Below are positions 6,253-37,766 of a DNA stretch of 64,000 nt, piece after piece (the stretch's first letter is position 1; each line of letters starts with the position of its first letter). Source of the DNA: Bacteroidota bacterium (GTDB lineage: Bacteria; Bacteroidota; Bacteroidia; CAILMK01); assembly GCA_013288555.1 (NCBI GenBank), contig JABDBQ010000011.1, forward strand, positions 1,820 to 65,819, written 5' to 3'. Under the pieces are notes generated by a model, which had not been told where the DNA came from, did not search any database, and saw only the letters and a program-made list of their open reading frames with translations. The translations under genes were made by a program, and so were the position numbers.

Positions 6253-6724
6253 GGAATTTCATTTTTCTGCAGAGACAAGTCATTGCCTTGTCTCCTGTCT
6301 GGATCAAATTATTAATTTGAATACCAGGGAATCAATCAGGCAGTTGTCATATATATATTTATCAATCTAAATGATTTCTCTCGGGGAGACAAGGCAGTGC
6401 CTTTGTCTCTACAATGCATCTAGTCAGGGCTTCGAGAAACCAGCCACTGTATTGTTCGTTATTTTCTATTTCCTATTCTCATTCTCGAATTCCCAAATTC
6501 CAAGTTTCAAGTTTCAAATTTGAACTTTCCATCAGAGTCTCACCCGGAACCATGTTGCTGACCCACAAATCAATGTGGACTCTGATGTTCTACTCACAAG
6601 AATTGTGCTTGCATTCGCGTATTCCTCAGAGTCCCCTCGGCGATGGATGGGTTAGGATCATATAAGGGGGAGACATCTGAGGGAAAGATAAAAAAATGAA
6701 ACATTTTGAAAAATATTTTCGCTT

Positions 6725-6810
6725 GTAACATATTGAATATATATAAGTTAAAAAATATTTTTCACGAGCACCCACCCACTTGGGCAGTTCGCTATATATG
6801 TATGTAAAAA
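6725..6810 (+). promoter_or_regulatory. Dispersed motif P, copy A (IHF-like site + CCACCCACTT + CTATATATGTA); putative alternative-sigma promoter
   Basis: Gap-free alignment with 37370-37454 (+) and 28643-28729 (-). Confidence 0.7.
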
Positions 6811-6849
6811 CAGGCGTAAGGGATAAGGCGTAAGGCGTAAGTGGATGGC
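6811..6849. repeat. Heptamer-type tandem repeat (AGGCGTA) unit
   Basis: 38/39 identical to 35962-36000; diverged inverted copy at 28802-28834. Confidence 0.8.
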
Positions 6850-6960
6850 GCGAGAGAATCATGCTAATCATTTAATCATATGAATCAAGGTTCAGACAAT
6901 TTTCGGGAACAAAATCAGATCTCTTCCCGAGCACTCGGGATCGAGATGACAGAAATTAAA

Positions 6961-7162
6961 AAGATAAACCGCCGTTTTTGGGCATTCTGGATTGATATTT
7001 CTCTGTTATCGCCTGTTATTTGTCAATGAGTTACGCGTAATTAGTTTAAAATAAATAAGTTAAAAAATGAAAAAAATGAAATTTGTCAAATATCAGGCCA
7101 GTTTGCTGGAAATGGCGTTTTTAAGAATTTATCAGGCCAGAATGCCGGAAGCGCGGTTTTTG
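6961..7162. repeat. Dispersed element D, copy 1 (inverted/direct arms around IHF-like sites)
   Basis: First 100 nt are 81/100 identical, without gaps, to 37561-37660; left arm 6981-6996 is inverted relative to 7092-7107 and 7131-7146. Confidence 0.75.
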
Positions 7163-7345
7163 ATTCGGACCAAATCCCCCTGCCCTCCCGAAGAAGTCGG
7201 GACAGGCCGTTGGAAGGGGGATTCCCTTCTTATTACTTTGAAATTGTAAATGAAAATTAAAGCATTGTCTCAACATTGTTTTTGTAAAGTCAAATATTGA
7301 ATGAATGTCAACAGGTTTTGTTAATTGATCATTGGTTATTGATCA

Positions 7346-23654: not shown

Positions 23655-24809
23655 CTATCTCATCGCATATTTCCCACTTGGTCTTAATCCATGGGTATGA
23701 ACAGCATATCTGATCGCATCAAGCGCATGATCATTGAATTTGACCGGTTCATCAATCAGGTTCCCGTTCGCATCTTCTTTCCATTTGTAGCCTTGTCGTT
23801 CTTTGAGGATATTGGTACTGCGGCGTGTTACAAATACTTTCATCCGTTTCATCTTATCAATCCCATCTTTCACACTTTTGTCAGCTGATTTGCAGTTTAA
23901 TCCCGCCTTCCTGATCTCAGCTATCCGCTGTGGTTCTGCAGCATCAGCATAGATACTTGCATGAGCTGGCAGTAAATCATTCATCCTTATAATGAGCTCA
24001 CTATTTGTAAGGTAGGTCTGATAGATCAATTCATCCACCCAAAGCTGGTTCCCGTCTTTCAAACAGCATTTCACAAGGGCAGTGGGAACATTATACCCGA
24101 AATCCAATCCGTAAAACACATCTCCTCCTTCTGGTAACTCATCCACGATATCCCAGGCATTGTATATGGTTGTTTTCAACTGACCTCTCTCACCGAGCCC
24201 GTATATCCTCCAGAGATTTTCATCCGTTTCTTTCAGTCTTTCAATTTCCTTTATGATATTTTTATCCAGGAAGTGATTGTCTTTATATGTTGACTTTATA
24301 AAAGTGCAATCAGTCCTTATCAACAGATGCTCATAGATCCAATGGTTCTCATCAACAGGATTGTAATCGATAAATACCTGTTTCCGGGTTCGTAACATCA
24401 ACTGGTTAAATGTTTCATAAGGAACTAAATTACATTCGTTTACAAACAGGATATCTCTTCTTGGGCCACGGGCTTTGCCGGGATCATCGAGACTGAAAAA
24501 TTCGATGCGGCTTTTACTGATTTTGAAAATATTATCCGTTTTGTTATAAAATTGCTCATCATACAAATCATATGCGTTCAGCATATTGGTAAAGTCAAGC
24601 AAGGCACCTTTTTTCAGATGCGGCAAACTCACCGAACAAACCGAAATATGCAATTTCTCTTTGATGGCTTTTGCAACCAATGCCTGCAAAACCGACCAGG
24701 TCTTCCCTGAAGATGTACCTCCCTGGTTGACAATAATCCGATCCGGCGATTCAAGATTTTTTGATAATATCTCCGATCCTTTGTATTTGAGTTTTTTAGT
24801 CTTCAACAT
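23655..24809 (-). CDS. Terminase large subunit (PBSX family)
   Basis: QGGTSSGKT Walker A, LFVNE Walker B, DYNP, GLDFGY, YADAAEP, NDHALDAIRY nuclease motifs. Confidence 0.92.
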   Translation of the reverse strand: MLKTKKLKYKGSEILSKNLESPDRIIVNQGGTSSGKTWSVLQALVAKAIKEKLHISVCSVSLPHLKKGALLDFTNMLNAYDLYDEQFYNKTDNIFKISKSRIEFFSLDDPGKARGPRRDILFVNECNLVPYETFNQLMLRTRKQVFIDYNPVDENHWIYEHLLIRTDCTFIKSTYKDNHFLDKNIIKEIERLKETDENLWRIYGLGERGQLKTTIYNAWDIVDELPEGGDVFYGLDFGYNVPTALVKCCLKDGNQLWVDELIYQTYLTNSELIIRMNDLLPAHASIYADAAEPQRIAEIRKAGLNCKSADKSVKDGIDKMKRMKVFVTRRSTNILKERQGYKWKEDANGNLIDEPVKFNDHALDAIRYAVHTHGLRPSGKYAMR

Positions 24810-28506: not shown

Positions 28507-28519
28507 TGTTTTGTGATTG

Positions 28520-28630
28520 GTGATTTGAAACTTGAAATTGGAAATTAGAAACTTGAAACTTGTGATTTGAAATTTGTGATTTGAAATTTGAAATTAGTAA
28601 ATGGTAAATGGTAGTTGGTAAATGGTCAGT
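28520..28630. repeat. Heptamer tandem repeat tract (GAAACTT/GAAATTT/GTAAATG)
   Basis: Consecutive degenerate 7-mers; similar tracts at ~6490-6522, 18185-18212 and 48100-48180. Confidence 0.7.
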
Positions 28631-28642
28631 GATTGTATCGCG

Positions 28643-28756
28643 TTTTTAATGTACATATATAGTGAAGTGGCAAAGTGGGTGGATGGTTTTGAAAAATAAT
28701 TTTCAATCAATTTTTAATCAATACGTTACAAGCGAAAATATTTTTGAAAATGTTTT
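28643..28756 (-). promoter_or_regulatory. Dispersed motif P, copy B, upstream of the phage sigma gene
   Basis: Reverse complement CCACCCACTTTGCCACTTCACTATATATGTAC; exact IHF consensus AATCAATACGTTA at 28716-28728. Confidence 0.7.
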
Positions 28757-28850: not shown

Positions 28851-28991
28851 TACAAATTTTGTTGGTATTTGCTCGTTTATTACAATAATAGTTGTATATT
28901 TGTAGCACATATTGGCATATTTTAAAATTGTGAGGAGCAAATATACTACTATAGTTGTAATTACAATGAAGTTTGTACAATTATTTTTGTA
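28851..28991. promoter_or_regulatory. Operator array TACAA-N6-TTGTA with face-to-face -7 promoters
   Basis: Sites 28881-28896, 28944-28959 (TACTA variant), 28962-28977, 28976-28991, degenerate 28851-28866; TATATTTG at 28895-28902 (+) and 28938-28945 (-). Confidence 0.75.
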
Positions 28992-29851
28992 AAAATATTA
29001 TGAATAAATTAACGGTTTCAAACTCAGATAGTTTCCGCGAACGCATTGGATATTTCCACAAAGAATTCCTGGGAATGCCTCAATATGTCTTCGCCGAAAG
29101 CATCGGTCTTGGACAGGAAAGGGTACGCAAAAGCCTCATGCCGGGAAAGCAACCCACCGCTGAATTTTTTGAAGCTATCTTCAACACCTACCCCGATCTG
29201 AATCCGGATTGGATCTTTACCGGGCGAGGCGCAATGCTTCATTCCAAAGAGGAGACGCTCACACCCTATATGGCTCAAGAATCATTTTCAAAACCAAGCT
29301 CAGAACAAGTGTCAGGCAAAAACCTCCGCGTGCTTTGTATTACCAACGACTCATCAGGCAATGAAAACGTGGAAGTGGTGAATACCAAAGCCGCCGCAAG
29401 CTATATCGACAATATACAGGAGCCGCAGTTCCTTTCCAGTCTGCCCAAGATAAGCCTGCCGGGCAATGTCTTCCGTGGCGGCACCTTCAGGGCCTTTGAG
29501 GTAAAGGGAAACAGTATGGAGCCTACCATTCAGCAGGGCTCATGGGTAATTGGTCAGTATGTACAAGACTGGTTGACGCTCAAAGATGATTATATCTATA
29601 TCGTGGTGATGCAGGATGCTATACTTATCAAACGGATTCTCAACCGTATTGATAAGCGACAAGGCCTCGTGCTGAAAAGCGATAACCGCGAATATGAAAA
29701 TAAAAACATTGACATTGACGAAGTAAAAGAACTCTGGCTATTGAAAGCCGAAATGCGCTACGACTTTAAAAACCCGAGCAAGGAAATGTATCTGCAACTT
29801 CAACATCTGATGGCTGATGTGGAAGATATTAAGAATAAGATCGGGCTTTAG
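28973..29851 (+). CDS. XRE-HTH / S24 peptidase repressor (CI/LexA-like); likely start ATG 29000
   Basis: N-terminal HTH and NPDWIFTGRG; AAASY cleavage-like site; FEVKGNSMEP (Ser) and LIKRI (Lys); LKSDN. Confidence 0.9.
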   Translation: MYNYFCKNIMNKLTVSNSDSFRERIGYFHKEFLGMPQYVFAESIGLGQERVRKSLMPGKQPTAEFFEAIFNTYPDLNPDWIFTGRGAMLHSKEETLTPYMAQESFSKPSSEQVSGKNLRVLCITNDSSGNENVEVVNTKAAASYIDNIQEPQFLSSLPKISLPGNVFRGGTFRAFEVKGNSMEPTIQQGSWVIGQYVQDWLTLKDDYIYIVVMQDAILIKRILNRIDKRQGLVLKSDNREYENKNIDIDEVKELWLLKAEMRYDFKNPSKEMYLQLQHLMADVEDIKNKIGL

Positions 29852-37231: not shown

Positions 37232-37369
37232 ATTTTAAACATGTATCTGGCAAATGTACACATTCCGCACAAAATGTGTACACGTCTGTGACATATCTTT
37301 ATCTAATCGACATATTCTATCTAACACATCACCGTCATAGTGACAACAAATTCCAAAAAAAATGAGTCT

Positions 37370-37454
37370 ATAACTCATTGAATAAATATAAGTTAAAAAA
37401 CATTTTTCCAAAACACCCACCCACTTTGGCATCTCACTATATATGTACATAAAA
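37370..37454 (+). promoter_or_regulatory. Dispersed motif P, copy C
   Basis: TAACTCATTGAAT...CACCCACCCACTTTGGCATCTCACTATATATGTACAT, colinear with copies A and B. Confidence 0.7.
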
Positions 37455-37560
37455 GCCGGGACCAAGAAGTTATCGTTTCGGTATCGCTCTTTATTTATTG
37501 AAAGGAATCAGTGTTTAGGCAAATTGGCCCAGCCTTCGTCGAGACTACAGCAGGCAATGA

Positions 37561-37766
37561 AAGATAAACCTGCGTTTTTTGCTATTCTGGATTGATCTTT
37601 CCCTGTTATCTATTGATATTTGTCAATGAGTTACGTGCATGAAGCTTAAAATCAATGAGTTGAAAATCGCAAAAAAAATGTAATCATTGTTTATCAATCC
37701 AGAATAGTCAAAAAGGCCGTTTTTGGGAAATTATCAATAGAAAACAATAAAAAAGGGCATTTTGAG
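37561..37766. repeat. Dispersed element D, copy 2
   Basis: Homologous to 6961-7162; perfect 15 bp inverted repeat 37582-37596 / 37693-37707; IHF consensus AATCAATGAGTTG at 37650-37662. Confidence 0.75.

Follow-up and report, generated by a model that had tools for sequence, protein, structure and literature searches.

The 64,000-nucleotide stretch analyzed here (hereafter the window; positions 1,820 to 65,819 of contig JABDBQ010000011.1 in the assembly GCA_013288555.1 of a Bacteroidota bacterium) carries two copies of a conserved non-coding element of approximately 200 bp, termed D, each of which lies downstream of a second conserved motif, P. An earlier note on this DNA had described D at these two loci and proposed that it was a packaging or recombination site for the terminase of a phage-like cassette in the window, or a structured RNA transcribed from P. 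Our analysis revealed that D is real and conserved, but that it is a member of a repeat family rather than a locus-specific site. The modules of this family occur in a fixed order, with P followed by a heptamer tract and then by one to three copies of D. On balance we favor, with some reserve, the interpretation that D is a DNA-level modular intergenic repeat, of the same kind as Correia, ERIC and BIME elements, which is kept by recombination and has regulatory effects that are at most secondary.

A lineage-restricted family of linked repeats

The observation from which this work started was reproduced in full. Comparison of positions 6961-7060 with 37561-37660 revealed 81 ungapped matches in 100, and the next best 100-mer offset in the window gave 46. 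Pairwise alignment of the two loci showed that P and D are conserved and that the spacer between them is unrelated and of unequal length. The first of two sites resembling the consensus of integration host factor (IHF), TGTCAATGAGTTA, was located at 7021 and 37621, as claimed, and the second, AATCAATGAGTTG, at 37650 in copy 2, 29 nt past the first; the latter is the sole perfect match to WATCAANNNNTTR in the two loci. The complementary arms described for copy 1 (GGCATTCTGG at 6981, paired with CCAGAATGCC at 7137) and for copy 2 (CTATTCTGG at 37582, paired with CCAGAATAG at 37699) were also found at their positions. Their true length is approximately 35 nt, however, and they belong to a set of five sites with the core YYTGWTA. 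Copy 1 of D spans about 6959-7166, beyond the 6961..7162 originally assigned.

The assembly (2.84 Mb in 102 contigs, 67% complete) was searched with BLAST and iterated nhmmer. These analyses revealed 35 distinct D places and 39 P places, with the D copies (at least 35) spread over 25 contigs; D is thus not a two-copy element. Thirty-one of the 35 D copies lie within 1 kb 3' of a P on the same strand, where they form 23 units that contain one D (16 units), two (6 units) or three (1 unit). Sixteen P copies have no D and four D copies have no P. P and the first D are separated by a median of 131 nt (range, 44 to 746 nt). We also examined a metagenome sample of 62 loci retrieved by a D-core pattern, of which 60 carry D at 50 bits or more. 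A same-strand upstream P was identified in 47 of these 60 loci, no locus has P placed otherwise, and 13 have no visible P, including at least three that end at a contig edge. Thus, the earlier suggestion that D is dispersed and co-occurs with P was borne out in the genome and in each of the 47 metagenome loci with both modules.

Neither P nor D was found by BLAST in 40 relatives, where the sole match was an unrelated short spacer repeat. Searches of 24 other genomes of the order with a D-core profile (R1) and a P profile (R2) returned only single marginal matches (E 0.002-0.009). Exact D-core and P-core patterns had no match in the one-genome-per-species GTDB collection of approximately 185,000 genomes, and the D and P patterns had none in 2.9 million viral contigs. 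At Rfam gathering thresholds the window yielded only one tRNA, and a scan of six P-D loci at E<=1 gave two chance-level matches, both outside P and D; D itself has no Rfam match. D and P are therefore a genus-restricted family, confined to this lineage.

Alignments of 35, 59 and 52 copies showed that D is an imperfect palindrome of approximately 200 bp that contains three phased direct and two inverted copies of the 7-bp core. Copy 1 spans 6959..7166 on the plus strand (nhmmer match C11:8778-8985, 174 bits; D-core profile match C11:8778-8903). Copy 2 spans 37560..37765, also on the plus strand (nhmmer match C11:39379-39584), and is flanked by the menD 3' end and by the 5' end of a Fic gene, antisense to both (Pfam). 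The left arm of about 35 nt has the layout AAAC-GC-rich-T5/TTTAAA-GGCAT-TCTGG-YYTGWTA; in copy 1 it was placed at 6966..6997 (plus strand) from its sequence and its pairing with the right arms, and it ends in site a, with the core ATTGATA at 6991-6997. Direct sites b (TCTGTTA) and c (CCTGTTA) follow at 7002..7018 on the plus strand, with their TG dinucleotides 11 and 10 bp past the preceding site, so that the direct cores are helically phased. The center of D carries the near-invariant TTGTCAAYGAGTTACGTG. Here copy 1 has the near-invariant 12-mer TCAATGAGTTAC at 7023..7034 (plus strand; invariant columns in alignments A2 and A3), which corresponds to the first IHF-like site of the earlier note. 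Next comes an A/T-rich stretch with the second site and then AAAAATGAAAAAAATGAA. The family consensus of the second site, AATCAATAAGTTG, fits WATCAANNNNTTR, which is matched perfectly in copy 2; the version in copy 1, AATAAATAAGTTA at 7050..7062 (plus strand), is degenerate. One or two right arms close each copy, as inverted copies of the left arm with the 3' end GGCGTTTTT. In copy 1, right arm R1 occupies 7090..7122 and ends in GGCGTTTTT, and right arm R2 occupies 7128..7161, ends in GCGCGGTTTTT and provides the closing stem of the minimum-energy fold (both on the plus strand). The 12-mer TCAAYGAGTTAC, with at most one mismatch, occurs 34 times in D, 11 times in P (in the opposite orientation) and 21 times elsewhere, the last figure compared with 27 in a reversed-genome control.

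P is approximately 112 nt long. Copy 1 was identified at 6701..6812 on the plus strand (P profile match C11:8520-8631), copy 2 at 37346..37457 on the plus strand (C11:39165-39276), and a third copy, which has no D, at 28643..28753 on the minus strand (C11:30462-30572). The conserved blocks, seen in copy 1 and in alignments of 39 own and 57 own-plus-metagenome copies, are ACATTTTCAAAAATATTTTCGCTTGTAAC, AAGTTAAAAAATATTTTT, CCCACCCACTT.GGCA and CGCTATATATGTA. A heptamer tract follows most P copies, with unit sequences that differ between them. In copy 1 it consists of GGCGTAA-type units with a terminal GGATGGCGCGAGA (6813..6858, plus strand), and the variable spacer between P and D holds a REP-like hairpin, CCCGAGCACTCGGG (6926..6939, plus strand).

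Symmetry of D and divergence at orthologous loci

The pairing of the arms was analyzed in alignment A2, where the left arm is complementary to right arm R1 in 81% and to right arm R2 in 77% of cells, compared with 29-55% standard pairs in slid-partner controls. Double changes were observed in 8 of 12 pairs between the left arm and R2 and in 4 of 12 between the left arm and R1, and the arm covariation score was reached by no shuffle. The five cores within one copy tend to share a single form, CCTG.TA or ATTG.TA. Because the direct sites b and c switch together with the inverted ones, base pairing alone cannot explain this covariation; the pattern of concerted switching suggests a shared recognition motif or concerted evolution. 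Folding of copies 1 and 2 gave z-scores against shuffles of -2.7 and -2.0 for the plus strand and -3.8 and -3.2 for the minus strand. Both strands fold better than shuffles, and the dyad symmetry is therefore not strand-specific. RNAalifold identified no consensus pairs on 59 D copies, a weak negative given that this alignment mixes subfamilies with one and with two right arms, and it identified none on either strand of P. On the plus strand all three arms of D have a G/C-rich segment followed by T5, and a terminator scan detected no local intrinsic terminator in the arms. A transcript across D would fold into a long hairpin. The symmetry of D is a property of the DNA, and D is non-coding.

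We next compared orthologous loci. Between C62 (10.9-11.3k) and L093 the flanks and spacers are 95-98% identical. The first D of this pair has a patch of approximately 75 nt with about 16 substitutions and identical sequence on both sides, and clean indels of REP-like hairpins (42 nt and 20 nt) lie inside D. The patch resembles the sequence of other D copies, which is what ectopic gene conversion would produce. At the orthologous locus shared by C2 and L111, P is 86-92% conserved and both the heptamer type and the D subfamily are different. Locus L078 joins the upstream flank of the C1 P locus to the C19 part with P, D and ndk, and the switch occurs inside P; the junction comes from a metagenome assembly and is possibly chimeric. 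Of seven orthologous pairs, three or four have non-homologous DNA 5' of P, and homology in P and the part that follows. As a separate observation, P coincides with apparent synteny breakpoints, including the L078 crossover. D is 58-88% identical across orthologous pairs, with many indels, and is no better conserved than its surroundings.

All six orthologous pairs in which both members show P and D have equal numbers of each, down to approximately 80% flank identity. The locus at C1:32.5k differs from L115, but the intergenic DNA of the two is unalignable, and the only common part of L126 and C43 is the conserved tail of a secretion-tagged gene. Because a D pattern was used to retrieve the metagenome loci, sites empty of D would not appear among them. 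Judged from these alignments, the family looks old and vertically inherited, and appears to have been homogenized or reshuffled by recombination among its copies.

These data are consistent with a model in which ectopic recombination between copies would spread and homogenize the family, with P and the other repeats serving as portable homology, and in which cut-and-paste transposition would be an unlikely means of spreading. D would most likely act at the level of DNA, as a site array that can be bent and that would be occupied by a sequence-specific binder and a protein of the HU/IHF type. Effects on neighboring genes would be secondary, for example insulation or altered RNA stability.

Several results weigh against this interpretation. 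Independent selfish insertions would not predict the strict order and orientation that D keeps relative to P, a pattern that fits a transcription unit equally well or better. No mobility event of D was seen among the loci compared, with neither an empty site nor a target-site duplication, and an arm-only hidden Markov model gave no significant match outside D in the 67%-complete genome. Conservation of D is highest at its center and not at its ends, unlike in most MITEs (miniature transposable elements with inverted repeats). Of 72 copies, 61 have a more stable fold on the plus than on the minus strand, and there are 173 mismatches of the G:U type compared with 85 of the A:C type, both of which lean to a role as RNA; the base composition of D (G 19%, C 15%) and the z-scores given above suggest that much of this is an effect of composition. 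The IHF consensus is an enterobacterial rule, and the assembled 67% of this genome contains one gene of the HU/IHF family (C6:68202-68468). Finally, the metagenome loci are not all independent, and include near-identical strains (L097, 100% identical; L131, 98.6% identical).

Alternative interpretations of the P-D unit

The chief alternative, which we regard as possible but doubtful, is a transcription unit made up of P, the heptamer tract and D, in which P would be a promoter for a sigma factor of the extracytoplasmic function (ECF) type and D a structured multi-copy non-coding RNA or 5' leader, with the long closing stem and U-run of D ending the transcript. The invariable position of D downstream of P on the same strand argues for it, as do the G/C-rich segments followed by T5 at the ends of the three arms, the greater stability of the plus strand, and the maintenance of P at orthologous loci, where six of seven pairs have a P identity of 75-90% (L095/L099, 31%) with surroundings that turn over. 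P also contains GTAAC-N15-GTTAAA, which resembles a sigma-E-type consensus (GGAACTT, then GTCAAA). Against these points stand the absence of consensus pairs for D and P in RNAalifold, minus-strand z-scores that equal or beat those of the plus strand, covariation of direct repeats that pairing does not explain, and arms that lack a local terminator-like hairpin. The absence of the family from all other genera searched would also be unusual for a functional RNA class.

The position of the units relative to genes was analyzed with crude sets of open reading frames (ORFs; minimum lengths of 90 to 250 aa). Units point toward the downstream gene in 25-27 cases and away from it in 7-9, in agreement with a transcription unit. 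They occupy divergent intergenic regions 11-14 times and convergent regions 1-2 times, and in tandem regions they are co-directional with the flanking genes 12-14 times and opposed 5-7 times. Genome-wide there are 311 divergent and 338 convergent regions, or 111 and 93 when only regions longer than 300 nt are counted. The units are thus enriched in divergent regions even though the two region types are about equally frequent, which indicates that 5' regions are favored. Six of the 39 P copies are directed away from both neighboring genes. Genes downstream of units include purC, hisS, ndk, an ECF sigma gene, ccmB, a proton pyrophosphatase, an adenine deaminase and others; these names were read from translations, and purC and menD were confirmed by Pfam. 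With unrelated housekeeping genes downstream, D is not a purC-specific leader, which the earlier note had also considered unlikely.

The -7 box TAnnTTTG of this genome occurs 411 times in the forward and 233 times in the reverse orientation in 854 upstream regions, with a peak at -40 to -21. This enrichment, together with Por_Secre_tail domains in neighboring genes, fits Bacteroidota. A canonical TAnnTTTG inside the P-D unit was found in only 1 of 29 units, from which it follows that P is not a canonical promoter. A perfect TAnnTTTG is present between the unit and the gene, often just before the start, for 16 of 29 co-oriented downstream ORFs; at least half of the downstream genes therefore have their own -7 box. 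Both results count against a transcription unit.

One P copy bears on this question through its location. A phage-like cassette occupies about 19.9-28.5 kb of the window and includes a TerL gene (23655-24809, minus strand; Pfam Terminase_3, E 2e-25; PHROG 2). Its first gene encodes a protein of 175 aa (28506-27979, minus strand), and a CI-like S24 repressor gene was identified at 28973-29851 on the plus strand (Pfam, PHROGs). P copy 3 sits between the repressor gene and the divergent 175-aa gene, and a heptamer tract of approximately 130 nt (28507-28640, minus strand) fills the whole space from P to the start codon. This is where an early promoter would be expected, divergent from a CI-like repressor and with no TAnnTTTG before the ATG, and it supports the transcription-unit alternative. 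The 175-aa protein has only eight close homologues, all of them unnamed, and had no Pfam match at E up to 5, which leaves its assignment as a sigma factor without Pfam support. Its AlphaFold model is poor (pLDDT 60) and had no Foldseek match at E<=0.001; the top approximately 50 weak matches are all sigma factors (best E 0.012), a further, weak point in favor of transcription from P. On the basis of this model, the protein may be a divergent ECF-like sigma factor, encoded behind P and opposite the S24 repressor; every link in this chain is weak.

An extension of the same idea, which we consider improbable, is that P copies are dispersed promoters of a regulon controlled by the cassette. Cleavage of the S24 repressor on DNA damage would lead to expression of the sigma factor, and approximately 40-60 P copies would then fire; the first gene of the cassette, expressed from its own P, would thus activate P copies chromosome-wide. 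Each P would drive a transcript of heptamer tract and D or open a D nucleoprotein array, and D would be a programmed entry point for recombination or packaging, or a family of stress-induced hairpin RNAs.

The interpretation of D as a classical MITE is unlikely. Here the arms would be terminal inverted repeats for a DDE transposase whose gene would lie at another locus, which may be in the third of the genome that is missing from the assembly. The inverted arms (about 35 nt) and their subterminal sites, of which the left side has three and the right side two, are compatible with this and resemble in layout the ends of IS21, Mu or Tn7; so are subfamilies in which all sites change together, the confinement of many copies to one lineage, and a genome that is only 67% complete. 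Flanking sequences of 46 copies, with D boundaries inferred from the drop in conservation, revealed no target-site duplication: the longest flank match averaged 2.07 nt, compared with 2.17 nt (standard deviation 0.16) for randomly re-paired flanks. D is also tied to P and not scattered. Taken together, the lack of a duplication, the absence of arms outside D, the equal D counts in all six orthologous pairs with both modules, and a center that is more conserved than the ends do not support a classical MITE.

A coding function for D is very improbable. On this interpretation D would encode a small protein of 24-40 aa that begins MKKIN (for example a type I toxin or leader peptide), and the arms would be a fold-back of its mRNA. 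At least 19 of the 35 own copies have an ATG, with A-rich surroundings, ahead of AAAAAGATAAAC, the MKKIN frame, from the conserved AAAATGAAAAAGATAAAC, is open in most copies to a common C-Q-stop or C-Q-R point, and three hairpin insertions in the frame are multiples of three (9, 21 and 21 nt). Codon-position entropy, however, was 0.71, 0.76 and 0.50 bits for positions 1, 2 and 3, so that the third position is the least variable. Residues differ non-conservatively between subfamilies (RFWAFW versus PLKPFP), and the stop codon is polymorphic (TGA/CGA) while the bases after it are nearly invariant. In addition, the ATG is missing from the frame in copy 2 and the start is absent in 16 of 35 own copies (script anchoring), several further copies have in-frame stops, and no -7 box lies upstream of the frame.

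Equally remote is the proposal, put forward in the earlier note, that D is a dispersed site, pac/cos-like or for recombination, on which the terminase or a different cassette protein would act: its anatomy resembles lambda cosB/attP in having repeats in two orientations around IHF-type sites, the window does hold a TerL gene near a CI-like S24 repressor gene, and one P copy heads the cassette, but no D lies in or beside the cassette (the nearest are approximately 13 kb and 16.5 kb from TerL), only 1 of the 39 P copies adjoins the cassette, at least 35 copies are spread over 25 contigs, the patterns are absent from the viral contigs searched, no portal or capsid family was recognized among the cassette ORFs (Pfam, PHROGs), and D persists at orthologous loci regardless of the cassette.

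Other candidates were rejected. An inverton (invertible promoter) was excluded by the orientation of the asymmetric D center, which is the same relative to P in all 31 own D copies that follow a P and in all 47 metagenome loci. ParB parS, the DnaA box, the Fur box and the Pho box, compared by eye with their known consensus sequences, all show mismatches at defining positions.

Neighboring repeat modules and related systems

Several other repeats accompany P and D. A nested hairpin repeat, GACCAAATCCCCC...GGGGGATT, lies at 7170..7229 on the plus strand; it belongs to a separate family that often abuts the 3' end of D, and it is the sole terminator-like match near copy 1. The right flanks of many D copies start with GATTC.GACCAAATCC. 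At the 5' edge, a G+C-rich hairpin (GACCCGCC...GGCGGGC) abuts the D start AAAGATAAACC at C27:16989, C33:20905, C16:6419, C5:7790 and C3:68348; it occurs in D copies without the ATG and may be a distinct module that was inserted there. The REP-like hairpin CCCGA(N2-8)TCGGG is present in 149 genome copies, compared with 6 in a reversed-sequence control, and its clean presence or absence between near-identical relatives indicates that this hairpin family appears to be currently mobile. At least two strong Y1_Tnp (RAYT/IS200-like) genes were identified (C2:57764-58108 and C9:4603-4947), and no hairpin repeat was found within 500 nt of these two genes.

Heptamer units of the types GGCGTAA, AATTACG, AATTTGG and ATTTCAA follow P and D, and the tracts frequently terminate in GGCTGGCGCGAGA. 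Another hairpin repeat, GCTCC(N3-5)GGAGC followed by ATTTT..TGAGTATTCTAAAAAA, has 19 copies, compared with none in the control. It is often located directly 5' of P, at at least eight loci (including C19:38.3k, C1:123.7k and L126:560-640), and is sometimes in tandem. Upstream of P copy 1, the non-coding stretch at about 6523-6700 is repeated at C6:89606-89883 (75%) and is also found in L121 (84% over 305 nt including P). This stretch has no Rfam match, and may be another repeat module or an unannotated RNA.

The P-D family was compared with known small repeats. Correia elements (Correia repeat enclosed elements, CREE) of Neisseria are described as having an inverted repeat, a conserved core, promoters at their ends, and binding of IHF and RNase III (PMC2649163). 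Like CREE, D is small (100-200 bp), multi-copy and intergenic, with inverted ends and a core that contains an IHF-consensus-like site; it often lies 5' of genes, and would form a hairpin if transcribed. Unlike CREE, D has three direct and two inverted phased sites in place of one terminal pair, has no duplication of TA or another target and no mobility polymorphism seen, and has its order and strand fixed relative to a separate module, P. D showed no promoter box, and its IHF site is a candidate defined by a consensus match.

BIME-1/RIP and ERIC/IRU repeats are enterobacterial mosaics or palindromes of 100-170 bp, in which inverted units surround an IHF-type site, and they are vertically inherited. 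D shares with them the form of an intergenic imperfect palindrome with inverted units that flank an IHF-type site. In contrast to BIME and REP sequences, the arms of D are approximately 35 nt long and A/T-rich, are not self-hairpins, and are not the G+C-rich REP; the REP-like hairpins of this genome are a separate family that inserts into D. D also differs from BIME and ERIC in being found mostly in 5' rather than 3' regions. Literature related to ERIC and to BIME-1/RIP-type repeats includes PMC2229807, PMC2759123, PMC3184786 and PMC10969869.

Reused or 'mobile' prokaryotic promoters are described as highly similar upstream segments that precede unrelated genes (PMC3575422). P is likewise a similar segment of approximately 112 nt before unrelated genes, but it lacks the canonical Bacteroidota -7 box, has the six copies that face away from both neighbors, and is a putative promoter. 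BOX elements of Streptococcus pneumoniae have the composition boxA-boxB(n)-boxC. The P-D unit has in common with BOX a fixed module order and a variable copy number of one module, but it is unrelated in sequence and host, and is built from an unstructured motif of 112 nt, a heptamer tract and a palindrome of 200 bp. Sites of the lambda cosB/attP type are also approximately 200 bp and carry short repeats in two orientations around IHF-consensus-like sites, as D does. They occur once per phage, beside terminase or integrase genes, unlike D with its at least 35 chromosomal copies, none beside a terminase gene and none in viral contigs. The five-site layout, the strict coupling to P and the lack of transposition hallmarks set D apart from Correia, ERIC, BIME-1/RIP and BOX elements and from reused promoters.

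Much work has been done on the small dispersed repeats of Proteobacteria and Firmicutes, and hardly any on those of free-living Bacteroidota. In this genome the intergenic regions are packed with an ordered mosaic of hairpins, P, heptamer tracts, D and nested hairpins. Viewed in a single window, such repeats look like regulatory or phage sites, and recognition of the family prevents their over-interpretation. The P copy beside a possible sigma gene of the phage-like cassette provides a testable lead; if the regulon interpretation were true, a domesticated phage module would be wired into a system that spans the chromosome. With its strict P-to-D order, the five sites of D and the recombination observed at P, the family offers a compact model of how repeats arise and remain homogeneous, of how gene neighborhoods are reshuffled, and of a possible double role of such repeats as regulatory DNA.

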